NCBI GenBank assembly: GCA_016185545.1
Contig: JACPNJ010000005.1
Span: 167,754 to 231,753, forward strand
Source: Candidatus Yanofskybacteria bacterium
Lineage (GTDB): Bacteria; Patescibacteriota; Minisyncoccia; 2-02-FULL-40-12; IGHO2-01-FULL-4-A
Reading direction: 5' to 3'
DNA: 64,000 nt
The notes beneath the pieces are model-generated. The model was not told the origin of the DNA, did not search any database, and saw only the letters and a list, made by a program, of their open reading frames with translations. Both the position numbers and the translations under genes were made by a program. Positions 4,769 to 60,997 of this stretch are shown piece after piece. How positions within the stretch are numbered: the stretch's first letter is position 1; each line of letters opens with the position of its first letter.

Positions 4769-5193
4769 ATTTCACCTTCTCTCCAGCCATAATTTAATTT
4801 TCAAAAAACTTGTTATTGAGAGTAACACGAACTATCATATTTATCAAATTCTTCAGGGGTCAAAAATTACAAACCAAGCTCACCCCCCTAATTTTTCTTC
4901 CTGTATCATGCCTTCATTACAAATTGCGGTCACTGGCTAAATTGTCGGACACAGACCAGTTCTCCGTTTGCCGCTTGCCCGCCTAAATTTTGCTTCGCAA
5001 AACTTGGGCGGGCTGACGCGTTTTCCGACTAGTCCTAGTGTTACCCGACAATTCTTAACGCCAGTTCCCTTATTTGTATAATCGGCAGATAATGTCAGAA
5101 AAATAAGGGGGTTCCGCTTAGGTTGGGTTTGTAATTTTTTAATTTTAGAGTAATTTTGGAGATTAATTTTGGAGATTCAATCTCCAAAGAGTG

Positions 5194-5354
5194 GGCTTGG
5201 TGGGCAATGCCTCATAGCACCGTCAAAAGAGTGGGTTGCACGGTTTGCGAGCAGTATAATAGTAAAACACTGCGAGCAAAATCCACGCTTTTGACGGAAT
5301 GCAGTCCGCTCGCTGGGCGGACAAATGGTGCTATGAGACATTGCCCACCAAGCC
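5194..5354. repeat. long imperfect inverted repeat / structured non-coding element
   Basis: 'gggcttggtgggcaatgcctcatagcaccgtcaaaag' pairs with 'cttttgacgg...ggtgctatgagacattgcccaccaagccc' (~29 + 10 bp arms); internal hairpins; tandem 'aattttggagatt' x2 just upstream; no ORF. Confidence 0.55.
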
Positions 5355-5391
5355 CCGTTTAGCATTTATTAAAATGTTGTATAATAAAAAT

Positions 5392-6497: not shown

Positions 6498-6833
6498 TTA
6501 TGGGTTACCAAGTGCGTTCCAAAATTTTGCACTCATCTCTTTAGCACTAATTTTAGGATAAACCCCAATCCTGCCGTAATGGAGTATCAAAAAAGTACGA
6601 TCATCACAAGGAATTACTTTTAAATTTTCTGGTCGAACATCATTTTCATCTAAAAACCTCATTAGTCTATTACTTTTAACCCCCGAGGAATTCAGATCAT
6701 TGACATCCAAGAAAAAACCGTGCCACTTTATTTTTTTTCTATTTTTCTCTGCGACTTTTCCATTACCCAAACTTTTTTCTTTCATAGTTTGTTTCACTGT
6801 TTGTTTCACTTTTTCCTCTTTATTCAATTGCAA
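6498..6833 (-). CDS. hypothetical protein (TTG start)
   Basis: 111-aa ORF lying directly downstream (on the minus strand) of promoter-like repeat R1. Confidence 0.4.
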   Translation of the reverse strand: MQLNKEEKVKQTVKQTMKEKSLGNGKVAEKNRKKIKWHGFFLDVNDLNSSGVKSNRLMRFLDENDVRPENLKVIPCDDRTFLILHYGRIGVYPKISAKEMSAKFWNALGNP

Positions 6834-6917
6834 AAGACCAATCTGCCGGGGCTTTTATGGCTCCCCAGCATCATAAGTAGGTTAGCATACGAGCCTATGG
6901 CGTGTCAAGAGTAAAAG
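6818..6917 (-). promoter_or_regulatory. repeat R1 copy 1 (promoter-like cassette)
   Basis: ~95-bp sequence duplicated at 8404-8500; the minus strand carries TTGACA-N18-TAACCT. Confidence 0.5.
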
Positions 6918-7924: not shown

Positions 7925-7957
7925 AAAAAAACAAAACCGCCAAATGGCGGCAAATCA
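7925..7957 (-). terminator. repeat R2 copy 1 (rho-independent terminator)
   Basis: minus strand: ccgccatttggcgg hairpin followed by ttttgtttt. Confidence 0.6.
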
Positions 7958-8042
7958 GTTGGTTAGTAATTTTTGATAAAGTAGGCCCAAGCGAAGTCGT
8001 AAAGACACTCCATAATAAAAAACGAGGTGTTTCCTCGTTCAA

Positions 8043-8403: not shown

Positions 8404-8500
8404 TTTATTCAATTGAAAAAGATCAACCTGCCGGGGCTTTTATGGCTCCCCAGCATCATAAGTAGGTTAGCATACGAGCCTATGGCGTGTCAAGAGTAAA
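8404..8500 (-). promoter_or_regulatory. repeat R1 copy 2 (promoter-like cassette)
   Basis: near-identical to 6818-6917. Confidence 0.5.
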
Positions 8501-8529
8501 AAACAAAACCGCCAAATGGCGGCAAATCA
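8501..8529 (-). terminator. repeat R2 copy 2 (terminator; contiguous with R1 here)
   Basis: identical to 7925-7957; follows the stop of 8549..8863 on the minus strand. Confidence 0.6.
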
Positions 8530-8548
8530 TTTTTCTTTTCAAGATGAT

Positions 8549-14558: not shown

Positions 14559-15272
14559 ATGATAGATACAGCAATAATCTTAGCGGGTGGAAGAGGGCTA
14601 CGACTAATGCCCCAAACGGCCGAACAGCCAAAAGCTATGGTTAAAGTTTTGGGTCGCCCGATGATTGAATGGATAATACTTTGGCTTAAAAAAAATAAAA
14701 TAACGAACATAATCGTAAGTGTAGATTACAAAAAGGTAAAGTTGATGAAATATCTGGGAAATGGTAAAAAGTTTGGAGTAAATATATGCTATAACGACCA
14801 CGCGGGAGCGTCAGAAACAGGAGATGCATTTCGCAGTGTCTTTTTAAATATAAAATCTTTGCCAGATGTTTTTGTAGCGATGAATGGGGATCAAATTACA
14901 AATCTTCCAATCAAAAAACTTGTTGCCCACCACAAGAAACATGACCCGATAGCAACCATAGTGACCTGCCCTATAAAAAGTCCATACGGAATAGTCACTC
15001 ACAACAACCTTAATCACTTGGTCAAAGATTTCAAAGAAAAGCCTATTCTGCCGAATATTTACATGAATACCGGTATTTACATTTTCAACAAAAAAATCAT
15101 TAAGTATCTGCCGCAAAAAGGGTCAGTAGAGAGAACGACTTTCAAAAAATTAATCAGAGAACAAAAACTCAAAGCTTATATTCATAGGGGACTATTCGTC
15201 ACGATAAACGACAACAAAGACCTGCAAGATACTGAAAGTATTTTAACCAAATCAAAAATTAATTTTTTATGA
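14559..15272 (+). CDS. sugar-1-phosphate nucleotidyltransferase (GDP-heptose/mannose-1-P guanylyltransferase-like)
   Basis: N-terminal AIILAGGRGLRLMP nucleotidyltransferase motif. Confidence 0.7.
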   Translation: MIDTAIILAGGRGLRLMPQTAEQPKAMVKVLGRPMIEWIILWLKKNKITNIIVSVDYKKVKLMKYLGNGKKFGVNICYNDHAGASETGDAFRSVFLNIKSLPDVFVAMNGDQITNLPIKKLVAHHKKHDPIATIVTCPIKSPYGIVTHNNLNHLVKDFKEKPILPNIYMNTGIYIFNKKIIKYLPQKGSVERTTFKKLIREQKLKAYIHRGLFVTINDNKDLQDTESILTKSKINFL

Positions 15273-15274
15273 AT

Positions 15275-15381
15275 CCCGTTAGAAATTAATCCTAACGGGA
15301 ATAAAAGGTATTTTATTAATATAAGATTGTGAGCTTGCCACCTGTTTAAAGTGGTGGACAGTCCGCAAAACTTCTAACGGG
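15275..15381 (+). repeat. family A palindromic junction element, copy A1
   Basis: terminal inverted repeats cccgttagaa.../...acttctaacggg; inner stem ccacctgtttaaagtggtgg; sits between the TGA of the upstream gene and an ATG. Confidence 0.8.
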
Positions 15382-15669
15382 ATGAATCCCGTACGAACCA
15401 AAACGTTCTATTATGCATATGTAATACAAAGCAATAAAGATGGGCGTTTTTATACAGGTTTTACGGTGGATTTACGGAAGCGCCTTAAGGAGCATAATGA
15501 AAGTAAGTATATTTCTTGGACAAAAGGAAGGGGACCGTTTGACCTAATTTATTATGAAGCCTGCAAAAACAAAGAAGATGCCAGGCAAAGAGAAAAATAT
15601 CTTAAAACAGGACGAGGCAAGCGCTTTATTAAAGAAAGATTAAGGCGCTTCCTGGTTCGTACGGGATGA
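15382..15669 (+). CDS. GIY-YIG nuclease superfamily protein (YhbQ/COG2827-like, 95 aa)
   Basis: YYAYVIQSNKDGRFYTGFTVDLRKRLKEHN = GIY-YIG motif block; the ORF runs exactly between the 12-bp inverted repeats. Confidence 0.8.
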   Translation: MNPVRTKTFYYAYVIQSNKDGRFYTGFTVDLRKRLKEHNESKYISWTKGRGPFDLIYYEACKNKEDARQREKYLKTGRGKRFIKERLRRFLVRTG

Positions 15670-17319: not shown

Positions 17320-18258
<939 letters not shown>

Positions 18259-18260
18259 AT

Positions 18261-18381
18261 CCCGTACGAGACACAATGAGTAAACACACAAAAATGGCCG
18301 GTGGCCGGAGTGTCTTTACTGGATAAAATGATAAACTAACTAGGCACGGTTGCGACAGAGTCGCAACCTGTCTCGTACGGG
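18261..18381 (+). repeat. family B palindromic junction element, copy B1
   Basis: terminal inverted repeats cccgtacgagaca.../...tgtctcgtacggg; internal ggttgcgacagagtcgcaacc hairpin; TGA-element-ATG placement. Confidence 0.8.
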
Positions 18382-19431
18382 ATGAAAATATGTTATCTAA
18401 ATATAACCAGGGAAATCCCCCAGCGGGATGTAGTTTATATAAACGGGTTAAAGGAAAATGGTGTTGAAGTAATAGAAATTTTAGATAATTCGCCAAAGTT
18501 AAAAAAATTCTGGCATATTTTTAAAAAACATCGCGCCTTAAACAACAACTACGACATTTTGTGGGTCGGATATTCTGCCCACATACTTGCGCCCTTCGCC
18601 CGTTTAATTTCCAGAAAAAAAATAGTTTTCAACGCACTCTGCTCATTGTACGAGGGACTGATTATATCGCGCAAACAAGCGCCACGGTTTTCACCAAAAG
18701 CTTTTTTGGTTTGGTTACAGGATTTTTTGTCATTTCATTGTTCCTCGTTAATACTTGTGGAAAGCGAGGAACAAAAAAAATTCCTTATCAAAAAGTTTTT
18801 TCTGAAAGAAAAAAAACTGCAAAAAGCTTGGACGGGAGTTAATGACAGGGACTTTTTTTATAATCCGGCAATCAAAAAATCGCCTGTCTTTTCTATAATT
18901 TTTCGCGGCGGATTTCTTCCCGAATCAGGAATTGAACACGTTGCTGAAGCCGCCTCACTTCTTCAAGATGAGAACATACGATTCAGAATTATAGGCACCG
19001 GTGTTATGGAAGATGCCCTAATCAACAAGCTCGCTACTTTTAATTCTAAAAATGTTGAATTTATTTCCGAAAAAATCAAAAGAGTCAGCCGCCCCGAACT
19101 TAACATTAAAATGCAGGAATGCCACATATCGTTAGGCCAGTTATCTGACCACGACCGCCTGAATAGAACCATTCCTCATAAGGCATTCGAGAGTATGGTT
19201 ATGAAAATTCCATATTTGACCGCGCGCAATAAAGCCGTACTGGAATTATTCGCCGAAAACGAAACTTGCTTTTGCTGTAACCCGGCTGACTCTCGTGATT
19301 TGGCCGATAAAATTATTTGGATAAAAAATAATTATGAAACGGCTCAAAAAATCGCCGAAAACGCTTATCAATTATACTCACGCGAACTAACCCCGAAAAT
19401 ACTTGCGAAAAAGGTATTAGAATTGTTTTGA
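18382..19431 (+). CDS. family 1 (GT4-like) glycosyltransferase
   Basis: GT-B C-terminal domain FISEKI...; 349 aa. Confidence 0.6.
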   Translation: MKICYLNITREIPQRDVVYINGLKENGVEVIEILDNSPKLKKFWHIFKKHRALNNNYDILWVGYSAHILAPFARLISRKKIVFNALCSLYEGLIISRKQAPRFSPKAFLVWLQDFLSFHCSSLILVESEEQKKFLIKKFFLKEKKLQKAWTGVNDRDFFYNPAIKKSPVFSIIFRGGFLPESGIEHVAEAASLLQDENIRFRIIGTGVMEDALINKLATFNSKNVEFISEKIKRVSRPELNIKMQECHISLGQLSDHDRLNRTIPHKAFESMVMKIPYLTARNKAVLELFAENETCFCCNPADSRDLADKIIWIKNNYETAQKIAENAYQLYSRELTPKILAKKVLELF

Positions 19432-21348: not shown

Positions 21349-22440
21349 TTACCCTTTTTTATTTAGATTACTTAATATAACATCAATTTCTTTTTTAGCC
21401 ATGTCAAGTGTTATATTTTTCACATCGCCATCGGTACCCTTGAGAACGCGATTAAGTGATCCTGGCGGGCGGTGATACTCTCGCTCATCGGTGGGCCCAA
21501 CTAAGACAAGGTTAGCCACATCAAAGGCATCAGCCGTTACCATTGGGCCGGAATCATTGCCTATGACAAGATCACACTTTGAAATCGCGGCCTTAAATTC
21601 ATCTAGGTTTTGATTAAGCAGGTTAACCGCCGGAACGCCGTCTAAAACCGCGAGCATTGCTGTTATCGGCCCCTCATCTTTACCGGCACCAACAAGCAAA
21701 ATCTTAGCGTTTTGTTCTTCGTAAAAAAATTTAGCTAATTCAGCAAATCTTTCCGCCGGCCACCAGCGCTCGGGCACCGCGCCACCCGGCGCAAAAGCAA
21801 CAATAAAATCGTCCACCGACATATTATTTTGAGTGAAAACATTGTTGATTTTATTTTCAGCTTCTTTGGAAAAATATAACCGGAAATGAGCATCGCCGGT
21901 ATTGGCATTAATTGGCTCCAGCAACTTAAGATATTGTGGCGGGACATATTGACCGGTATAAAACGGCGATGTGATTGCAAATGTTTTTAGAATTGAATAA
22001 GAAACCGAAGTATCTCCTTTGCCGCTCTCGAGTGAAAAAGTAGAAATGGTTTTAATGCCGGCAAGGTATAGCAGAGCAAAACCCATTGTACTGCCAAGAT
22101 TGGCCAAACAAGCAAAATCAATTTTTTCTTTTTTTAATAGTTTAACGACGGTCCAAAAGTTATTTTCGTAATTTATATATTTATCTATATCCGGGTTGTG
22201 TCTGATCACTTCTTCTACCCGACCAGCACCAATAACATATAGTCTGCTATCTGGATACCTGGTCTTAATGGCCCTGAACATGGGCGTGATATAAACAACA
22301 TCGCCCATGTGCGGTTTCCAGCGCAAGATAAGAATCCTTTTGGGGTTTGAGGTAATTTTTTTTGCTCTGCCGCGGAATAAATAATATAAAAGACACAATA
22401 ATAAACTGCCAAGATTTGTAAATTTACTGGATAATTTCAT
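21349..22440 (-). CDS. family 9 glycosyltransferase (ADP-heptose:acceptor heptosyltransferase-like)
   Basis: ILILRWKPHMGDVV and LVIGNDSGPMV GT9 motifs. Confidence 0.75.
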   Translation of the reverse strand: MKLSSKFTNLGSLLLCLLYYLFRGRAKKITSNPKRILILRWKPHMGDVVYITPMFRAIKTRYPDSRLYVIGAGRVEEVIRHNPDIDKYINYENNFWTVVKLLKKEKIDFACLANLGSTMGFALLYLAGIKTISTFSLESGKGDTSVSYSILKTFAITSPFYTGQYVPPQYLKLLEPINANTGDAHFRLYFSKEAENKINNVFTQNNMSVDDFIVAFAPGGAVPERWWPAERFAELAKFFYEEQNAKILLVGAGKDEGPITAMLAVLDGVPAVNLLNQNLDEFKAAISKCDLVIGNDSGPMVTADAFDVANLVLVGPTDEREYHRPPGSLNRVLKGTDGDVKNITLDMAKKEIDVILSNLNKKG

Positions 22441-22547
22441 CCCGTTAGAAGTTTTGCAAACCGGCCACCACTTTGAACAGGTGGCAAACTCACAAATTTT
22501 ATATCAATAAATGCCCTTTATTCCCGTTAGGATTAACTTCTAACGGG
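22441..22547 (-). repeat. family A element, copy A2
   Basis: near-identical reverse complement of A1. Confidence 0.8.
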
Positions 22548-22549
22548 AT

Positions 22550-23407
22550 TCATTTCCTTAAAGTTACGCAAGCCACTGCTCTGGCGGCGGCCACCCCGTC
22601 ATCGTTAATTTTTTTGCCGGTACGGATGTTAAAATATTCCAAACCATCGCATTGCTCCTGTTCACTTATCTGCCAACCATCTTTTGAGTACTTATAGAAA
22701 ACAGTATTAAATTCGGCGGCGCCGAAAGCATCGGCAACTTTTTGCACCATTTGTGAATTAAACTGCTGAAAAAAACCATGGTTTTCGTATCGGCCGAACG
22801 GTACGGTAATAAAAAGTGTTCCGCCCGGCTTCAACATTCTTTTCATTTCAAGAACCGCCGGCAGATAATCGCCGCTGTTTTCCTTGAACCGGTTTTCACC
22901 GGTATATATTTGCGTGTTATCCATTCCTATATGCTCAAGAGTGGAGACACAGGAAATTATATCAAAATTATCGCTTTTGAATGGTGCTTTTCTTATATCG
23001 CTATAAACATACGATACTCCTTTATTCCAAAAACAATTTGATTCCGGATTGAGATTCATTATAAAAAGATTCTTGGGGACAATATTTTTATGTTCAATAA
23101 TTTCCTTAAAATTAAGGGCCGAACCGGCATCCAACATTTCCACACGGTCACCACCGATTTGGGAAATAACCCATGGAATTTCAATGATTCTTTCATCAAT
23201 TCCAATGCCATATTTTTCGGGCAACTTCCCATTATTTTTAAACAGTCTCGATAGTTCATTATTTTTAAGAACTGCGCCAATTTCACGCCATTTATATTCA
23301 AAATAACCCCTGCTCCAAGGCTTGCGGCCGTGCAATTCGTAGGATAATAAATTTCTTCTAGCAATTAAACTTTTTGCAAAATATCTTAATTTTTTGTTAA
23401 ACCCCAT
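22550..23407 (-). CDS. SAM-dependent methyltransferase
   Basis: class I methyltransferase fold (LDAGSALNF...KPGGTLFITVP). Confidence 0.6.
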   Translation of the reverse strand: MGFNKKLRYFAKSLIARRNLLSYELHGRKPWSRGYFEYKWREIGAVLKNNELSRLFKNNGKLPEKYGIGIDERIIEIPWVISQIGGDRVEMLDAGSALNFKEIIEHKNIVPKNLFIMNLNPESNCFWNKGVSYVYSDIRKAPFKSDNFDIISCVSTLEHIGMDNTQIYTGENRFKENSGDYLPAVLEMKRMLKPGGTLFITVPFGRYENHGFFQQFNSQMVQKVADAFGAAEFNTVFYKYSKDGWQISEQEQCDGLEYFNIRTGKKINDDGVAAARAVACVTLRK

Positions 23408-23512
23408 CCCGTTAGAAGTTTTGCAGACCGTCCACCACTTTAAACAGGTGGCAAGTTCACAAGCCTTATATCAATAAATACTTTTTCCCCGTTAGGCTTA
23501 ACTTCTAACGGG
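23408..23512 (-). repeat. family A element, copy A3
   Basis: same termini and interior as A2. Confidence 0.8.
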
Positions 23513-23513
23513 A

Positions 23514-24725
23514 TTAAGCAATACAAATGAAAACTTTACTAAAAATCTCGTTAATCGGCTTCTGATATTTTATCACGAAAAGTTCGCCGTTGTCGTAAAT
23601 TTGGAACACGGTTTTATTGAGGCCCAAGAGCGGTTCCCAAATTTTATTATAAAACCAGCTTGCTTTGGTAAACCGGAAATCGTCATTGTTTGAATAAATC
23701 TGGTTTTCGGAATTGTAGTGGTAGTTGAAGTCCCTTTCGGTTATAAACCCGAGCTGCCTGTTACGCCGATGATATGACAGAAAACAATTTTCAAGAAAAT
23801 CCACTTGGGAAAAAGATATTATCATATCATCCGGATTGACATTCATTTTTTTAACGGCCAAAGCGATTTTGAAATTATTAAATAATTTGCGCGGTTCCAA
23901 TGAATAAAAGATTCTTGGAAAAAATTTAATCTCATCAAAGTACTCCCTTATATCGTCTGGTTTTACAAAATCCCAGCGAGGATGGCGGGAAACGACCAAG
24001 TTTATCTTGGTACTAGGCAAAAAAGACCTTATAAAACGCGCCAGGGATACCGCACTAACCACAAACTCCGTATGCGAAAGGACAAACCAAACTTTACCGT
24101 GAAAATCGGAAAATAGTTCGCGTATATTACGCTCAAAAAGTTCATCTTTTGCGGTGGCTATTCTATTTTCAACAAGCTCTTGTTTGAGGTCGGTTATAAA
24201 AAGTGAGCTTGGCACTTTTGCAAAATATGTTTCGGTAGTCTCAAAGTACTTGTCATTATAGACATTTTTAAAAAGCCGATAAAATAGGTAAGCATTCAGA
24301 CCGAAGCTATAGGCGGAAACCGCCGATGTTGAGTTCACGGCAAAAACACATTTAATTTTTGGAAGATTTTGCCACAAAAACAGTTCAGCCGTTGTTTTGT
24401 CTTGGATTAAATTAAAACCATTTAAGTTTAAAAATAATTGTTTTTTTTCATCAGATGGATGCGGTTTATAATAAAGATCGTACCCACCAAAATTCCGGCG
24501 AATATAATCAAGGCACTCGTTGCATTTAGCAACATAAAACTCCTTGTCTGCAAAACCTGAAGCCAGAATGCCTTTCATATCACTGCCCATAAAAACAACC
24601 ATTTTCGCGCTAAAACCGCTTTTAGAATCCGGTTCTTTTTTGTTTAAACTCAACAAATGAGGCAGTGAAATCCTGACGACATTATTTATTTTTTTATTTA
24701 TACCGACAAATTTTCTTATATCCAT
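23514..24725 (-). CDS. hypothetical GT-B-like transferase with a KPHP motif (paralog of 36483..37706)
   Basis: shares CLDYIR...YDLYYKPHP..FLNL with 36483..37706; HP motif as in CMP-sugar/CDP-alditol transferases. Confidence 0.45.
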   Translation of the reverse strand: MDIRKFVGINKKINNVVRISLPHLLSLNKKEPDSKSGFSAKMVVFMGSDMKGILASGFADKEFYVAKCNECLDYIRRNFGGYDLYYKPHPSDEKKQLFLNLNGFNLIQDKTTAELFLWQNLPKIKCVFAVNSTSAVSAYSFGLNAYLFYRLFKNVYNDKYFETTETYFAKVPSSLFITDLKQELVENRIATAKDELFERNIRELFSDFHGKVWFVLSHTEFVVSAVSLARFIRSFLPSTKINLVVSRHPRWDFVKPDDIREYFDEIKFFPRIFYSLEPRKLFNNFKIALAVKKMNVNPDDMIISFSQVDFLENCFLSYHRRNRQLGFITERDFNYHYNSENQIYSNNDDFRFTKASWFYNKIWEPLLGLNKTVFQIYDNGELFVIKYQKPINEIFSKVFICIA

Positions 24726-24845
24726 CCCGTATGAGACAGGCTGTGATTCTGTCGCAACCGTACCTAGTTAGTTTATCATTGTATCCCGTAAAGACACTTC
24801 GGCCACCAGACCTTCTTGTGTGTTTACCCTTCGTGTCTCGTACGG
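24726..24845 (-). repeat. family B element, copy B2
   Basis: cccgtatgagaca...tgtctcgtacgg; the interior matches the reverse complement of B1. Confidence 0.8.
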
Positions 24846-24871
24846 AATCCATGAGTAAATCTCCGAAAGCC

Positions 24872-26107: not shown

Positions 26108-26213
26108 CCCGTTAGAAGTAGCAACAGCGACAAAAGTTTTAATTACGGCCGCAGTGTCTACTTGAAAAAAAATAACTTTAATTCGTGAACCCGCTAGGTC
26201 TACTTCTAACGGG
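26108..26213 (-). repeat. family A variant element, copy A4
   Basis: same 12-14-bp termini cccgttagaagtag/ctacttctaacggg; different interior. Confidence 0.7.
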
Positions 26214-26226
26214 ATACATTATTAAA

Positions 26227-27360: not shown

Positions 27361-27483
27361 CCCGTTAGAGGCAGGTTACGCTCTTTGAGCGTAACCGTAC
27401 CCAAATAGTTTAAATGATAATTCCCGTTTGTATGTTTCTTGCACCGCTATTCTTGATTAATTGCCTGTTGTGCCTCTAACGGG
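27361..27483 (-). repeat. family A variant element, copy A5
   Basis: termini cccgttagaggc/gcctctaacggg; internal ggttacgctctttgagcgtaacc hairpin. Confidence 0.7.
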
Positions 27484-28584
27484 ACGAGTCATCATTCTCA
27501 TTATATTAGCATGGTCTTCTCTGGCAATCTCGTATTTGCTTTTATTCAACTGGCTTGGATCATCCCGTACGAGACAGGTTGCGACCCTGTCGCAACCGTG
27601 CCTAGTTAGTTTATCATTATCTCCAACAGGGACACTCCGACCACCGGCCTTTTTTGTGTGTTTATTCGTCGTGTCTCGTACGGGATCATCCCTAGGAAAC
27701 ATATTGGATTTAAAACCGCATTCAACGCCCAATTGACTTAAAATCTTAAGAGTACTGTCATTGTAAGAATTGGCAGGATGGGCCATGTCCACGGGCGGCC
27801 TGCCGCAAACTCTTTGTATGTGTTCATAATTTTTTTGATACTCTTCTTGCTGTCGTTCAAAAGGAAGTTCGGCAAGCATCATGGGGTGTGAATATGAATG
27901 CAGTCCGATTACATGGCCTTGCCTATTTAAGTAAGCAAGGTTTTCATTTGACATCCATATGTTTTTAGAAAGATCGGCCAAATTCAACCCTTGGTCTTGA
28001 ATAATCGCATCCATAATTATTTCAAATTCCTCACGGCTTAACACGCGATCCCTAATCAAACGAAAGCGCATGTCATTGGTTGAGTAAAACGGGAAAGTCT
28101 TGGAATACCTTACCATATCGGTCTCTTCTAAAACTTTCCTGGCATTATTTCCAAATTTTGATTGAAAAATTTTATCAAAAAAAATATTGTAAAAGTCATC
28201 AATATCTTTAAAAAACTTAGAGCGAAAAACCCGATAAATTTCAAATTTGCCAAGGCCGCCCTCAAATACACTGGAATAGACGAACCAAAATGCTTTTAGG
28301 TTGTACTTGTCCAAAACCGGCAAGACAACATCAAATTGACATAATAGCCCATCATCCAGGGTTATGCAAACATCCCGATTGGTTAATTGGTTCGCCCCCA
28401 ATCGCTTAAGCCATTCTTTAGGATCAAGTATCCGATCTAATCCTACAAACATAAGAATGGCTTCAAAATCCGACATTGATATCGAACCTTGCCCTTTGTA
28501 ATGTTTCCGTTCGTCATGAAAATGATGGAACATTATCCCGTGAGCAACCGAACTGAGATATTTTTTTTTAGATAATTCGCTCAA
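27457..28584 (-). CDS. polysaccharide deacetylase (NodB-homology domain); the 3' ~230 nt of the ORF reads through elements B3 and A5
   Basis: ITLDDG NodB motif and HSYSHP His motif; the frame stays open through the repeat elements, so the true C-terminus is uncertain. Confidence 0.6.
   Translation of the reverse strand: MSELSKKKYLSSVAHGIMFHHFHDERKHYKGQGSISMSDFEAILMFVGLDRILDPKEWLKRLGANQLTNRDVCITLDDGLLCQFDVVLPVLDKYNLKAFWFVYSSVFEGGLGKFEIYRVFRSKFFKDIDDFYNIFFDKIFQSKFGNNARKVLEETDMVRYSKTFPFYSTNDMRFRLIRDRVLSREEFEIIMDAIIQDQGLNLADLSKNIWMSNENLAYLNRQGHVIGLHSYSHPMMLAELPFERQQEEYQKNYEHIQRVCGRPPVDMAHPANSYNDSTLKILSQLGVECGFKSNMFPRDDPVRDTTNKHTKKAGGRSVPVGDNDKLTRHGCDRVATCLVRDDPSQLNKSKYEIAREDHANIMRMMTRPVRGTTGN
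27564..27684 (-). repeat. family B element, copy B3
   Basis: cccgtacgagaca...tgtctcgtacggg; in tandem with A5. Confidence 0.8.
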
Positions 28585-29725
28585 TTTTTTTAATATCTAA
28601 ATAATCCTCGGAAGAAAAACTTAAACCCGAGGTAATTTTTTGAAAGCCCTCGTAAAAACGCGGCTCACTGACAAGGTTATGAATATTGGCAGTTGGTACA
28701 AGAATCAACATTTCATTATTAACCCATGCTTCTTTATTGGAGTCGTTGGAACCCATAAGAGCTTCGTGCAGTTTGTCGCCGACACGATCTCCAATGTATT
28801 TTATTTTTATCACAGCCCCAGAAGACCGCTGCTTCAGTCGTGGATGATTGGGTCTTCTGGGGCTGGATTCCGCCCCACGGTCAAGCCGCCAAGCTTGACT
28901 GTGGGTGATGGTACCACGGGCTTGGCCGTGGGGCTCCATTTTTTTTCCAGAGTAATATTTTTTTATAAATATACTGGCTAGATCTCCCAAGCGGATTGAC
29001 GGCATTTTCAAAATAAAAATTTCACCGCCCGAACAAAGCTGGGCCGCTTTCAGAGTCAAACTAACGGCTTGTTTTATGGACATGAGAAAGCGGGTCGCGT
29101 CTTTGTTGGTAACATTAATCGCGCCGCTGGCTTCTACTTGTTTTACCCACATCGGCAGTACTGAACCATCGGCCCAGGCAACATTGCCGAATCTTACACA
29201 GGCAAGCTTCATTTTATCTCCCAGAAAAAAACTGGAATTTATAAAAAGCTTCTCCATCATAAGCTTGGAAGCGCCAAGCACATTTAAGGGGTTGGCAACT
29301 TTATCCGTGGAAATGGCAATAATTTTTTCAACACCGGCGTGCAAAGCCGCGTCAATAATATTATGTGAACCGACAATGTTAGTTTTCATCGCTTCTGACG
29401 GATTATACTCGCAAAACGGAACATGTTTTAAGGCGGCGGCGTGAAAAACTATGTCTACATTTTTAAAAGCAAGATGTAAACGCTCTTGGTCTCTTATGTC
29501 TCCAATCAACATCCTTAAGTTTTTTGGGTAACGAAGCGCCTCCAATAGGTGGTATTGGCGTGTTTCATTTCTGGATAAAACCCTGATCTGCTTCGGCTTG
29601 GACTTTAAAAGCTGGCGAACCAGTTCTGCGCCAATACTACCAGTGCCTCCAGTTACCAAAATGGTTTTATTTTGAAACTCGTTAATCATAGAAAACAACT
29701 TAAAAATGCAAACCTCAAATCTCAA
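28568..29725 (-). CDS. UDP-GlcNAc 4,6-dehydratase (PseB/FlaA1/CapD-like), with an in-frame 43-aa insertion
   Basis: ILVTGGTGSIG...VLSRNE...HAAALKHVP...YIGDRVGDKLHEAL; 385 aa versus ~335 for homologs. Confidence 0.75.
   Translation of the reverse strand: MRFEVCIFKLFSMINEFQNKTILVTGGTGSIGAELVRQLLKSKPKQIRVLSRNETRQYHLLEALRYPKNLRMLIGDIRDQERLHLAFKNVDIVFHAAALKHVPFCEYNPSEAMKTNIVGSHNIIDAALHAGVEKIIAISTDKVANPLNVLGASKLMMEKLFINSSFFLGDKMKLACVRFGNVAWADGSVLPMWVKQVEASGAINVTNKDATRFLMSIKQAVSLTLKAAQLCSGGEIFILKMPSIRLGDLASIFIKKYYSGKKMEPHGQARGTITHSQAWRLDRGAESSPRRPNHPRLKQRSSGAVIKIKYIGDRVGDKLHEALMGSNDSNKEAWVNNEMLILVPTANIHNLVSEPRFYEGFQKITSGLSFSSEDYLDIKKIERII
28811..28939 (-). repeat. GC-rich triple-hairpin element inserted in-frame in a coding sequence
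   Basis: 129 nt at ~62% GC versus ~40% background; stems gccccagaagacc/ggtcttctggggc, cccacggtcaagc/gcttgactgtggg, ccacgg/ccgtgg. Confidence 0.6.
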
Positions 29726-30150
29726 AATGTAATTTAAAATTCCAAACTATTTTCTGCCTTTCATGGTTAGTACGCCAGCGCCAATAATTTTAGAAATTTC
29801 TTCGGCTTCTTTAAGCAATGGGTTAATTTGATTTCTTAAATTAGGCGTACTTTCAATGAGCAAAATCAACCAATATTTTGTCTCATTAGAACTCTTAAGA
29901 GCAATCTGAAAAAATTTTAAATAATCCAATTTTGAGCTAGCGGCTCGAGCTTCGAAAACGTTGGCTCCAACTGAAGTTGCAGATCGAATCAGTTGATCGG
30001 CTATCGCCCACAAATTCCTACTTTTTCTTACTTCTCCACAAAGTTTAATTATTGCTAAAGAAAAATCAATAAGCCGTTTATTAAATTGCATTTTAAAATT
30101 TACATTTTCATTTTGCATTTTGAGATTTGAATTTTGAATTGGGTAATTTT
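29703..30150. mobile_element. inverted-repeat-bounded module carrying a four-helix-bundle (23S rRNA IVS-type) protein gene
   Basis: AT-rich inverted-repeat arms with core caaatctcaaaatg (29703-29746; 30092-30150, reverse complement) flank the ORF. Confidence 0.55.
29747..30118 (-). CDS. four-helix-bundle protein (23S rRNA intervening-sequence protein family)
   Basis: WAIADQLIRSATSVGANVFEA...YLKFFQIALKSSNETKYWL is characteristic; the first 9 codons lie in the inverted-repeat arm, so the probable start is MQFNK (~30091). Confidence 0.7.
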   Translation of the reverse strand: MQNENVNFKMQFNKRLIDFSLAIIKLCGEVRKSRNLWAIADQLIRSATSVGANVFEARAASSKLDYLKFFQIALKSSNETKYWLILLIESTPNLRNQINPLLKEAEEISKIIGAGVLTMKGRK

Positions 30151-35680: not shown

Positions 35681-35768
35681 AAATTCAAAAAGCAAATCTC
35701 AAATCTCAAAATCTAATTTATAATTAAAAACTTTCATTTTGGATTTTGAGATTGAAATTTTGAATTTT
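35681..35768. repeat. 'caaatctcaaaat' AT-rich palindromic hairpin (empty copy of the 4HB-module inverted repeat)
   Basis: gcaaatctcaaatctcaaaatc ... gattttgagattg. Confidence 0.65.
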
Positions 35769-36476
35769 TTTCTCTATTTTCTTTTTGTGGGCAAATATAG
35801 TTTCCGCCAAAATCCAATCTTCTATGCCGTCCAAATCAATTGAGCGCCATTTCGGACAGACAACGCCGCGGGTATCGGCATTAATAAATTTTCTGGTTTT
35901 TATAAATTCATTGATTCTTATCATATAGACCATACAGCCATTGAGCAAATAACCGGCGGGCCAAACCTGCCTATTGGTGCTTTCTTTTTCAATTTTATTT
36001 GCCAAAATTAATTTGCCTTGGTCATCTAAATGATAAAGACGCGGATGCGTGTCACATATTGTACAGACGGATCTGACCTTGGAATCTAGCATCCGTTTCC
36101 AGCATTTTTTGATATCGGATATTTCTCTCAATGGCGAAGTTGTTTGTAAAAGAGTTATTATATCCGGCTCATAACCATCCTCTTCTTTTAGTCTTTTAAG
36201 TAGAAGTAAAACGGCGTCAACGACAGGCGATTTATCACCAGCCAACTCCTTGGGCCTTAAAAACGGCACCTCGGCGCCGTATTTTCTGGCCACTGCGGCG
36301 ATTTTCTCATCTTCTGTATCTACAACAATCCTATCAAACAAGCCGGTTTCCCTGGCTTGCTCTATGGCATGTGCAATTAGCGGTTTACCATGAAAAATTT
36401 TGATATTCTTGCCGGGTATGCCTTTAGACCCGCCTCTGGCCGGAATAATGGCTAAATTTTTTATTGATTTTTGCAT
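35724..36476 (-). CDS. neuA: acylneuraminate cytidylyltransferase (CMP-nonulosonic acid synthetase, NeuA/LegF/PseF-like)
   Basis: AIIPARGGSKGIPGKNI...TSPLR; the last ~14 codons are encoded by the palindromic repeat. Confidence 0.8.
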   Translation of the reverse strand: MQKSIKNLAIIPARGGSKGIPGKNIKIFHGKPLIAHAIEQARETGLFDRIVVDTEDEKIAAVARKYGAEVPFLRPKELAGDKSPVVDAVLLLLKRLKEEDGYEPDIITLLQTTSPLREISDIKKCWKRMLDSKVRSVCTICDTHPRLYHLDDQGKLILANKIEKESTNRQVWPAGYLLNGCMVYMIRINEFIKTRKFINADTRGVVCPKWRSIDLDGIEDWILAETIFAHKKKIEKKIQNFNLKIQNESF

Positions 36477-37706: not shown

Positions 37707-37715
37707 GAGTAGAAT

Positions 37716-37800
37716 AATTTAAACCTCAAATCTCAAAACTCAAAATTTAAATTTTGAATTTTAAATTACATTTTGAGATTTGAGATTTGCATTTTGAATT
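37716..37800. repeat. 'caaatctcaaaat' AT-rich palindromic hairpin (second empty copy)
   Basis: aacctcaaatctcaaaactcaaaattt ... cattttgagatttgagatttgcatttt. Confidence 0.65.
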
Positions 37801-59296: not shown

Positions 59297-59330
59297 AATT
59301 CAAAATGCAAACCTCAAATCTCAAAATTAC
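59297..59330. repeat. single arm of the 'caaatctcaaaat' repeat family
   Basis: caaaatgcaaacctcaaatctcaaaattacag. Confidence 0.5.
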
Positions 59331-60997
59331 AGACTTGCAGTTTTTCTGCAATCATAGATCCGAGCCGGAATTTTACCAGAATATTCCTCATAAACCTTTC
59401 TACATGACGAAAAATATTTTACATAAGGGCTGTCGGAATGCAAGCGAGGAATTTCAATTATTAAATAATGGCCTTTGAAATTTTTAAGAATATCGGTATA
59501 ACTTGACTCAAATTTCGGCGCGGCATAAAGTCGTCTTTGATATTTGTCTATTTTTAACAATTCGCGGTAGCCGATGTTGTTATAAGTGATTACTTTTTCT
59601 ATATCCGGATCGTTTTTTATAAAGTCAACGGCATTTTTTAATACTACAGTGGGGCTACCGTTGATCTTGCCAAATAGGTACTCTTCAACAAAAATACCGT
59701 TATAGAAAAATCCAAGAATTAGAATTATCGCTAAAAATGACTTTTGCCATTTTGTCTTTATAAACGACAAAATTACCAGAATTAACGCTATTAGCCAAGC
59801 CAATGCCATAAACAACCAGGAAACATAAAAACCCATCGGCCCCGAACCGCCGATGAACGGAAACAGGAAATTCCATTTTAAACTCAAAATTCGGTTAAAC
59901 CATTCTGTTTTGGGATATAGTGCTGGTACAAAATGAGGCAAAAACTGCAGGAAAAACAAAGCCAATCCGATAGCACAACCAAACACTATGACCCTCCACT
60001 TGTTATAGACGCTCTGCCCTTCAAAAATGTTGCTCACAACAACACCTGAAATAACAGACAAAGGCACAATCATGAATTGAAAATAACGATCCAGCGCGCC
60101 AGATGAAAAATCAAAAAGTACCAAATAAAAAATCAGGCCGAGGATAAGAAAAATTATAAAAAGACGCAATTTTCTCGCCAAATCTTTTGTTAAAAATAAA
60201 AGAGGCAATAAGAGAAGCGGCGAACTGTAAAGCAGGGCTTTGAAAAACTGAATTGAAATCTGGAGATAATTTCTGTCAGAAAAAACGACAAAATGCTTCC
60301 AATAAGAAAGTGGCCTTGAAATGTCGGCATTAGGCAAAATATGCATAATACCCAAAATCAATAAAAATAATGAGGCAAGTATGCCAATACCAATTGAGGC
60401 AAACTTAAACAATTTCCGACGGGATAACAGGTGTTTTTGCGAATACAAAAAATCCAAGGCAATGGCGCCAAGCGCTATAACAAAGCTAACTTTTGTTAAG
60501 GAACCGAGAAAAATAAAAACCGCCAAAACGCTCCCCAAAATCAGTTTTTTCTTTAAATTTATGCTTTCTCTCCATTTATAATAAAAAAGGGCTGAAAGTA
60601 AAAAAAAGAAGGGCAAAACCTGCCCATCGGTATCAATCATCAAAGAAGCCAAAACGCTAAAAAAACCGGCGCTAAAAAATAAAACGCTCCAAAGAGCGGC
60701 TTTTGTGGAAAACCTGCGTTTTACCAGAACAAAAAGAAGCCAAAAATTAGCAATGCCGAACAAAAACGGCAAATGGCGCAAATTATCTTCACCAAACGCC
60801 TTTACCGCCACAAAAAAAATTAAGGGGGTAAGCGGCGGATGAACAAACCCGCCTAAACCCCCTAATCCCGCACTGCCAAAGCCAGGCCAAACCCGTTCAT
60901 CCTGATGATATGGTAAGTCCAAACCTGGAATTCTTAAAATCAAAAACAAAATAAAAATTATAACCAGTATTGCACGCGTATTCATCTTTTGAAGCAT
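59327..60997 (-). CDS. GT-C fold membrane glycosyltransferase (ArnT/PMT, GT39/GT83-like)
   Basis: ~12 transmembrane segments; DE motif in the first loop (HQDERVWPG). Confidence 0.6.
   Translation of the reverse strand: MLQKMNTRAILVIIFILFLILRIPGLDLPYHQDERVWPGFGSAGLGGLGGFVHPPLTPLIFFVAVKAFGEDNLRHLPFLFGIANFWLLFVLVKRRFSTKAALWSVLFFSAGFFSVLASLMIDTDGQVLPFFFLLSALFYYKWRESINLKKKLILGSVLAVFIFLGSLTKVSFVIALGAIALDFLYSQKHLLSRRKLFKFASIGIGILASLFLLILGIMHILPNADISRPLSYWKHFVVFSDRNYLQISIQFFKALLYSSPLLLLPLLFLTKDLARKLRLFIIFLILGLIFYLVLFDFSSGALDRYFQFMIVPLSVISGVVVSNIFEGQSVYNKWRVIVFGCAIGLALFFLQFLPHFVPALYPKTEWFNRILSLKWNFLFPFIGGSGPMGFYVSWLFMALAWLIALILVILSFIKTKWQKSFLAIILILGFFYNGIFVEEYLFGKINGSPTVVLKNAVDFIKNDPDIEKVITYNNIGYRELLKIDKYQRRLYAAPKFESSYTDILKNFKGHYLIIEIPRLHSDSPYVKYFSSCRKVYEEYSGKIPARIYDCRKTASL

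Follow-up and report, generated by a model that had tools for sequence, protein, structure and literature searches.

In a 64,000-nt stretch of DNA from Candidatus Yanofskybacteria bacterium (assembly GCA_016185545.1, contig JACPNJ010000005.1, positions 167,754 to 231,753, forward strand; hereafter the window), we characterized short palindromic elements that stand between genes, the first group of which is termed Family A. The best overall explanation is that they are transposable elements of the miniature, inverted-repeat kind (MITEs) inserted at start codons, that they belong to a large superfamily occurring mainly in Patescibacteria, and that this superfamily has an autonomous partner encoding a small GIY-YIG nuclease; we put the probability of this reading at roughly 0.7. 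That Family A itself consists of mobile, non-autonomous MITEs that duplicate their target is virtually certain. The element that encodes the nuclease is, judging from its sequence and its ends, a probable autonomous partner of these MITEs.

Results

Two families of short palindromic elements

An initial annotation had described five copies of a palindromic element of about 105 nt, A1 to A5, set precisely between stop and start codons. We recovered all five, the positions being right to within ±1 nt. On the gene strand, and counted from the T of TCCCGT through the last G of ACGGG, they are as follows.

15274-15381, plus strand: A1, a 108-nt MITE with TTAGA-type termini
22441-22548, minus strand: A2, a 108-nt MITE on the start codon of a GT9 heptosyltransferase-like gene; duplication ATGAA at 22549-22553 and 22436-22440
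23408-23513, minus strand: A3, a 106-nt MITE on the start codon of a methyltransferase gene; intact duplication lost (TTAA / ATGGG)
26108-26214, minus strand: A4, a 107-nt element on the start codon of a 411-aa methyltransferase gene; Family A termini, unrelated interior, flanks ATGTA / ATGAA
27361-27484, minus strand: A5, a 124-nt element on the start codon of a 377-aa gene; TTAGA-type termini, canonical right-end hairpin module

The terminal inverted repeats of Family A are 13 nt long and perfect (TCCCGTTAGAAGT/ACTTCTAACGGGA), and on the strand of the flanking genes the copies read TCCCGTTAGA...TCTAACGGG with an ATG directly after. Allowing up to two mismatches, the 12-mer CCCGTTAGAAGT occurs 14 times in the window compared with 3.8 ± 1.8 times in shuffled sequence, and none of 100 shuffles reached 14. 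A1, A2 and A3 are near-identical, as the initial annotation had it (87-89% pairwise), and carry the inner stem CCACC...GGTGG; A4 and A5 share with them the termini alone, at an overall identity of 55-65%. RNA folding of the Family A copies gave -35 to -45 kcal/mol, with z of -4.0 to -7.3 against shuffled sequence. Directly after ACGGG, each of the five copies meets the ATG of a long open reading frame (ORF); at A1, where the downstream start had previously not been read, this ORF is a GIY-YIG nuclease gene.

Two further features ascribed to the junctions proved less general. An upstream stop abuts A1, A2 and A3 as described, but the stop lies 13 nt upstream of A4, and at A5 the upstream ORF runs into the element. 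ATGAA on both flanks is found at A2 and at A1, where the left copy (15269-15273) includes the TGA stop of an NTP-transferase gene and the right copy occupies 15382-15386, while the flanks are degenerate at A4 and the pattern is absent from A3 and A5.

A1 to A3 also contain the terminus a third time, internally and inverted (TCCTAACGGGA), 5 nt past the left repeat (15288-15299 in A1). Together with the left end it makes a 27-nt mini-hairpin (15274-15300 in A1), followed by ATAAA. A nested or minimal element may have left this internal copy behind as a scar.

The initial annotation overlooked a second family, Family B, as well as termini of the same type that bound the GIY-YIG ORF beside A1. Family B has three copies in the window, 80-90% identical in pairs, with termini TCCCGTACGAGAC/GTCTCGTACGGG and the junction pattern of Family A.

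18260-18381, plus strand: B1, a 122-nt MITE with TACGA-type termini, between an epimerase stop and a glycosyltransferase start; duplication ATGAA at 18255-18259 and 18382-18386
24726-24847, minus strand: B2, a 122-nt MITE on the start codon of a 403-aa gene; duplication ATGGA at 24848-24852 and 24721-24725
27564-27685, minus strand: B3, a 122-nt MITE at an out-of-frame ATGAT inside a polysaccharide deacetylase gene

A1-A3 and B1-B3 occupy six different junctions, and the genes around the elements form, by Pfam matches, a polysaccharide biosynthesis cluster that uses both strands. B3, with a duplication of 4 nt, is translated as a 42-aa in-frame insert of the deacetylase ORF (27457-28584, minus strand). 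These 42 residues are missing from all nine aligned deacetylase homologues (61-80% identity) and from a related locus, L205 (loci from other assemblies carry L numbers throughout). The annotated deacetylase, P0121 (358 aa, against a usual homologue length of ~315-330 aa), includes both the B3 residues and a tail encoded by A5, PVRGTTGN. We infer that B3 is the kind of exception that would survive, namely an insertion within a gene that keeps the frame open.

Insertion duplicates an ATG-purine-purine target

To describe target sites and anatomy, we used 158 elements (156 for some counts) from the window and the fetched loci. An exact flank repeat of 4-6 nt beginning with ATG is present in 115 of the 158; it measures 5 nt in 104 elements, 4 nt in seven and 6 nt in four. 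Because the search set no condition on the left flank, this repeat is a genuine target duplication. Among the 104 duplications of 5 nt, ATGAA accounts for 61, ATGGA for 18, ATGAG for 15 and ATGCG for four, the remainder being others; ATGCA, ATGCC, ATGTA, ATGAT and ATGGG were also seen.

The idea of a MITE that targets ATGA stop/start overlaps and duplicates them, offered by the initial annotation as one of two possibilities, was thus right about mobility and duplication and wrong about the target, which is ATG followed by two purines. A purine occupies position +3 in 92% of the targets and position +4 in 97%. In the same loci, purine-purine follows only 39% of the ATGs that come first in long ORFs, indicating a preference of the element for ATG-R-R at the level of DNA sequence. 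Of the 104 clean insertions, 17 (~16%) lie on an ATGA that overlaps the stop of an upstream ORF, so the ATGA rule is a special case, and 53 have no same-strand ORF ending nearby. The right ATG opens an ORF of at least 60 aa, or one that leaves the locus, in 138 of 158 elements, compared with 25% of random ATGs. At several of the exceptions another element follows in tandem. Thirteen elements were picked without requiring an ATG (nine in the window, four in L206 and L207), and all 13 abut one.

Head-to-tail elements that share a single ATGAA were observed in the window (15274-15665) and in L014, L082, L109 and L114. These arrays look as if one insertion had regenerated an ATGAA that the following insertion then used as its target.

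Empty sites in related genomes

The initial annotation had proposed looking for empty junctions in related genomes, and four independent comparisons revealed them. First, L041 carries two elements with ATGAA duplications, and the syntenic locus L160 has a single ATGAA at each place. Second, L205 lacks both B3 and A5. Its deacetylase is 80% identical to that of the window, and the gene downstream is 94% identical over the first 100 residues, the remainder being off the contig. Once B3 and A5 are removed, the window aligns colinearly with L205 except for a 21-nt deletion to the left of A5, which accounts both for the missing duplication of A5 and for the ending of the deacetylase ORF inside it. 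Third, in L206, from a Yanofskybacteria metagenome-assembled genome (MAG), the site of A3 is an unoccupied ATGA overlap, and at the site of B2 the same locus has a single ATGGATATC, compared with ATGGA/B2/ATGGA in the window. Elements sitting always at orthologous junctions in relatives and nowhere else, an arrangement that would speak against MITEs, is contradicted by these sites.

The fourth comparison concerns the start codon of the methyltransferase gene, which is occupied by A3 in the window, empty in L206 and occupied in L207 by a truncated GIY-YIG element; this remnant is 5'-truncated, has an in-frame stop, is flanked by ATGAA on both sides and matches the 3' end of the window's GIY-YIG element at 92% identity over 132 nt. 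The start of the GT9 gene holds A2 in the window and, in L206 (10860-10973), an element of 114 nt that is unrelated to A2 and has the other terminus subtype, indicating that this site was hit more than once. For A1, a metagenome scan anchored on the epimerase was uninformative with regard to an empty site, the best relatives being only 40% identical; the same scan also yielded L160.

A GIY-YIG nuclease gene bounded by the same termini

Directly after A1 lies a longer element with ends of the same type.

15387-15665, plus strand: GIY-YIG coding element, 279 bp, termini TCCCGTACGAACC...GGTTCGTACGGG, flanked by ATGAA on both sides

Its sole ORF (15382-15669) is coextensive with the repeat-bounded element and encodes a GIY-YIG nuclease of 95 aa (Pfam PF01541, E = 8.8e-17). 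Its first codon is the duplicated ATG on the left (MNPVRT...), and its stop is the TGA within the duplicated ATGA on the right, so that this stop overlaps the ATG of the epimerase gene (15666). The search for homologues returned 1499 at E < 1e-5. Among the best 120 of these, 107 end in LTG or RTG before the stop; the codons are CTA/CGT-ACG-GGA-TGA, in which the A of the duplicated ATGA comes after the right repeat. The N-terminus M-x-P-V-R, present in 72, is encoded by ATG-NNT-CCC-GTT/A-(A/C)GA, in which the left repeat comes after the duplicated ATG. In 39 the gene call starts at an internal methionine, a few codons further in. Around diverged homologues in L202, L209, L215 and L221 we found ATGAA|TCCCGTTAGAG...CTCTAACGGG|ATGAA, the right ATG starting four unrelated host genes, and the same termini surround GIY-YIG genes in L096 and L017. 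No other element of more than 200 bp (up to 4000 bp) with these termini and free of internal ends was present in ~1 Mb of fetched loci, in which candidates of that size were GIY-YIG elements or pairs of separate MITEs.

The contig carries a second nuclease copy, P0021, with an LTG end. The RTG-type nuclease matches the termini of Family B, and the LTG-type P0021 matches those of Family A. Conservation of the catalytic residues (Y, Y, R, H and E) is complete or almost complete. An AlphaFold model (pLDDT 86.9) shows the GIY-YIG core followed by a long C-terminal helix. Sequence comparison with phmmer returned 1zg2 (UPF0213 protein BH0048; 3.7e-12) and 1ywl (4.4e-06), and Foldseek returned 1zg2 first, followed by Slx1 chains at E of 1e-4 to 3e-2, with I-TevI at E ~1. 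By sequence and predicted fold, the nuclease is closest to the Slx1/UPF0213 (YhbQ-like) clade. Profile matches to 'group I intron endonuclease' and a homing endonuclease in PHROG were weak.

In L209, the GIY-YIG element (601-885) separates two adjacent ORFs that both match PEP-utilising enzyme domains, which may be a split gene or paralogues. Small GIY-YIG genes of the same broad family, without TCCCGT termini, were found beside tRNA genes in L005 (1942-2265), L014 (5458-5787) and L016 (7273-7548), all on the minus strand; those of L005 and L014 are flanked by duplicated 5' portions of the tRNA gene. This arrangement suggests that the tRNA-adjoining genes are a sister lineage with a different insertion habit.

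Covarying ends and unrelated interiors

The short elements of the window are non-coding and 106-124 nt long. Across the collection the left terminus reads TCCCGT(T/A)(A/C)GA-NNN and the right terminus is its complement, a perfect inverted repeat of 13 nt being typical (exactly 13 nt in 88 of 156 elements, at least 13 nt in 129). Positions 11-13 vary between elements and families and are complementary within each element. The interiors are mostly unrelated: among 156 elements we found 42 similar pairs, 37 in the same orientation and five in the other.

In about one third of the elements one terminus adjoins a hairpin, ACGG-stem-loop-stem-CCT(A/G)-NN-TCTAACGGGA, in subterminal position; the module is present in A5 and Family B and missing from A1-A3. 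Two-sided changes were seen in six of its seven base pairs. The initial annotation had noted a common orientation relative to the flanking genes in the three copies that could be compared. Such a bias is real, the hairpin lying at the ATG-proximal end only in 50 elements, and is not absolute, as it lies at the distal end only in ten (about six with the canonical module). The right ends of MITEs, GCTTCCT-NN-TCTAACGGGA, match the last codons of the nuclease gene (R-F-L-x-L-T-G), which fits the short elements deriving from the coding element.

Signs of function at the level of RNA or translation were sought in several ways. In the terminal stem G-U pairs are not in excess over A-C mismatches (47 and 59, respectively); such an excess would have been a sign of selection on the RNA. 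From the left ATG there is no conserved mini-ORF, the stops being scattered at a median of 19 codons, and none is consistently placed so as to couple translation to the right ATG. Element length is unbiased toward multiples of three, 20 of 103 elements being frame-compatible. Scans of 14.5-28.5 kb for promoter-like and terminator-like sequences gave counts equal to those of shuffles, the sole element-related match being the terminal mini-hairpin of A2 on the antisense strand. Rfam 15 returned nothing at the gathering score across the 64 kb, with only weak matches far under that score near the elements, and a tRNA/tmRNA scan found none.

Occurrence across genomes

We scanned one genome per species for the ten terminal bases of each end followed by ATG. 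At least 120 loci matched, nearly all in genomes of Patescibacteria (the candidate phyla radiation, CPR). The matches listed include Saccharibacteria, many Paceibacterota/Parcubacteria lineages, Levyibacteriota and Kerfeldbacteria, as well as small numbers of Omnitrophota and of MAGs labelled Gammaproteobacteria or Planctomycetia. A Family A member is present in another Yanofskybacteria genome (L071). A scan of IMG/VR for a viral vector gave a single match. GIY-YIG domain proteins are among the genes predicted to have been donated by Patescibacteria to other bacteria (PMC12455944). Our literature search, whose coverage was incomplete so that an earlier account may exist, returned no description of the elements.

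Other repeats in the window

The window holds further repeats. An AT-rich palindromic family (CAAATCTCAAATCTCAAAAT ... ATTTTGAGATTTGAGATTTG), unrelated to the TCCCGT elements, is intergenic at 29698-29782, 30056-30140, 35682-35769, 37713-37800 and 59297-59343. A direct repeat of 98 nt (6819-6916 and 8404-8501, 97% identical) holds the hairpin CTGCCGGGGCTTTTATGGCTCCCCAGCA, and a terminator-like repeat of 35 nt, AAAACCGCCAAATGGCGG, occurs at 7926-7960 and 8498-8532; both lie in non-coding stretches between short ORFs. Finally, the arms of a 29-nt inverted repeat (5193-5221 and 5327-5355, 97% complementary) are 105 nt apart.

Discussion

Taken as a mechanism, the proposal is that the nuclease would mobilise its own element and, in trans, the MITEs. 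It would recognise the paired termini as branched or hairpin DNA and cut at the junction between element and flank. This structure-directed model is tentative; it is put forward because the Slx1/UPF0213 clade, in which the nuclease falls, is structure-specific and because the termini covary in the manner of a stem. From the 5-bp duplication follows a staggered break of 5 nt, which would be made at ATGRR and followed by joining and fill-in, the joining being carried out either by host functions or by a chemistry new to GIY-YIG enzymes. A sequence preference for ATGRR, together with the loss of insertions that break genes, would produce the start-codon bias, and the orientation bias of the non-coding copies suggests a reaction that is directional relative to the asymmetric target. 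After insertion the host ORF is restored by the right duplicate ATG, and at ATGA overlaps the upstream stop is kept by the left copy. The coding element would thus borrow the translation start of the host and return translation to the host gene through the ATGA overlap. As a speculation, the stem might bring the two copies of ATG together and so preserve coupling.

Several points weigh against this explanation. GIY-YIG enzymes are hydrolytic and, to our knowledge, none performs strand transfer, so that a full transposition pathway cannot be written from known chemistry, and the case for the nuclease is purely associative. Repeat-bounded GIY-YIG genes are present in only three of the 8-kb MITE loci (the window, L096 and L017). 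Since the genome scan demanded an ATG past the right end, part of the ATG rule is built into that set of elements, and the 39% control uses the first ATG of long ORFs, which only approximates true starts. The hairpin set was pre-selected for pairing, hence weight falls on covariation and not on the percentage paired, and 94 of 156 elements lack a local hairpin under this criterion. A3 and A5 lack an intact duplication, that of A5 being explained by the flanking deletion.

The alternative that survives best, although we consider it unlikely, is that another enzyme moves the MITEs, be it a conventional transposase or a host recombination function elsewhere in the genome, and that the GIY-YIG gene rides along as a passenger or is selfish in its own right and has acquired, or shares, their ends. 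Besides the missing precedent for strand transfer, it draws on the fact that most MITE loci have no GIY-YIG gene within 8 kb and that the inspection covered 64 kb of the 339-kb contig and 8-kb slices of other genomes. However, the nuclease ORF fills the 279-bp element and has the repeats as both its ends, as it does in 107 of the best 120 homologues, and ~1 Mb of sequence contained no longer element with these termini that is free of internal ends. Moreover, a GIY-YIG remnant lies at the exact site of A3 (in L207), and the two terminus subtypes match two nuclease subtypes in the genome.

It is far less probable that the short elements are decayed remnants of separate GIY-YIG insertions, formed by internal deletion and not mobilised as such. 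An element of the expected kind is decaying in place in L207, 5'-truncated and with an in-frame stop, and the right ends of the MITEs resemble the 3' end of the nuclease gene. Their interiors, however, show no similarity to that gene. A1-A3 and B1-B3 share non-coding interiors (87-89% and 80-90% identity) across loci with differing duplications (ATGAA and ATGGA), indicating that the short form itself was copied, and a Family A member recurs in another Yanofskybacteria genome (L071).

The second possibility offered by the initial annotation, a structured intercistronic RNA selected by the host for RNase processing or translational coupling rather than mobile DNA, is disfavoured as the primary explanation and has a slimmer chance still. 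The predicted folds are strong (z -2.9 to -7.8), the hairpin covaries and is biased in orientation (50 to 10), and the start codon stands at the base of the stem. Yet the targets are duplicated and empty junctions occur in relatives; the interiors are unrelated, with 37+5 similar pairs among 156 elements; the G-U and A-C counts of the terminal stem (47 and 59) mark neither strand as RNA; and there is neither an Rfam family nor a consistent position of the mini-ORF stop, while B3 lies in frame within a gene. A secondary effect at the RNA level on host expression may nevertheless exist. That collapsed or chimeric reads created the repeats, a worry raised in the initial annotation and natural for a MAG, has a negligible chance of being correct, since an independent Logan assembly (L001) carries A1 and the GIY-YIG element identically, the copies differ by 11-13%, and more than 120 independent assemblies contain related elements with site-specific duplications.

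Returning to start-codon MITEs with a GIY-YIG partner, what follows depends on the role of the nuclease. Known transposases belong to the DDE, HUH, tyrosine recombinase, serine recombinase and Cas1 classes. The chances are about even for a further-reaching reading, in which the Slx1-like 94-aa nuclease serves as transposase to a class of DNA transposon not recognised before. At ~280 bp this transposon would be the smallest autonomous one known; it would insert at ATG-R-R, open its frame with the start codon of the host gene, close it with the duplicated ATGA, and have spawned many families of start-codon MITEs across the CPR. If the nuclease does move the elements, a new enzyme class would join the transposases, autonomous mobile elements would have a new lower bound on size, and the element would be a parasite that seizes the translation start of its host and leaves the gene intact. 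Regardless of this, annotation of CPR genomes is affected, as gene callers extend ORFs into the elements; the deacetylase record with its 42 MITE residues and element tail is an example. A strongly folding RNA of ~120 nt now separates many host starts from their former upstream signals, a natural experiment in translation initiation in hosts that appear to use little Shine-Dalgarno pairing here. The elements also offer cheap presence/absence markers for strain-level population genetics of uncultured lineages.

Comparison with known systems

Integron attC sites were considered and rejected. These have RYYYAAC ... GTTRRRY cores and stand in a cassette array beside an integrase. Here the order of the motifs is reversed, with GTTAGAA at the 5' end and TTCTAAC at the 3' end, the TACGA-type elements have no GTT, and the flanking genes form an ordinary polysaccharide cluster on both strands, with no cassette-array context.

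Rickettsia palindromic elements are likewise palindromes of ~100-150 bp that can be translated in frame within a gene, as B3 is. They have no sequence relation to the elements described here, for which in-frame intragenic copies are exceptional and insertion at start codons is the rule.

IS200/IS605 and REP/RAYT elements use an HUH/Y1 transposase, have asymmetric ends with no terminal inverted repeats and no target duplication, and insert on the 3' side of a sequence of four or five nucleotides. Shared with them are the very small size, DNA hairpins close to the ends that appear to matter, non-autonomous hairpin derivatives and, plausibly, movement as single-stranded DNA. The present elements differ in their 5-bp duplication, their symmetric 13-nt termini and their GIY-YIG protein, and inspection of the elements themselves revealed no Y1 transposase gene inside any of them.

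Like the seg genes of phage T4 and the I-TevI family, the coding element is a selfish GIY-YIG gene placed precisely between host genes. Unlike GIY-YIG homing genes, it encodes a protein of 94-95 aa that consists of the nuclease core and one C-terminal helix, with no separate DNA-binding domain, and it has inverted-repeat termini, the ATGAA duplication, many non-homologous sites and non-coding derivatives, none of which is expected of allelic homing. The activity of Slx1, cutting of branched DNA, would suit an enzyme that recognises the paired termini as a stem. In contrast to Slx1, the protein has neither a RING/zinc-finger domain nor an Slx4 partner, and its gene is bounded by inverted repeats and a duplication. 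No mobile role for the Slx1/UPF0213 clade is described in the literature that could be searched.

The closest parallels to the short elements are the Correia elements of Neisseria and MITEs derived from IS630/Tc1-mariner transposons, which are non-coding, ~100-150 bp long and dispersed in many copies, have terminal inverted repeats and a short target duplication, lie beside or between genes, are co-transcribed and fold into a long stem. The present elements resemble them in being short, repeat-bounded, dispersed and foldable and in duplicating their target. They differ in the target, which is ATG-R-R with a 5-bp duplication instead of TA, and in that the surviving copies lie on start codons; the only coding relative encodes a GIY-YIG nuclease and not a DDE transposase, and the termini covary as a stem. 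As MITEs, the elements are of a known kind, set apart by their target, by their stem-like, covarying termini and, above all, by their putative parent element.

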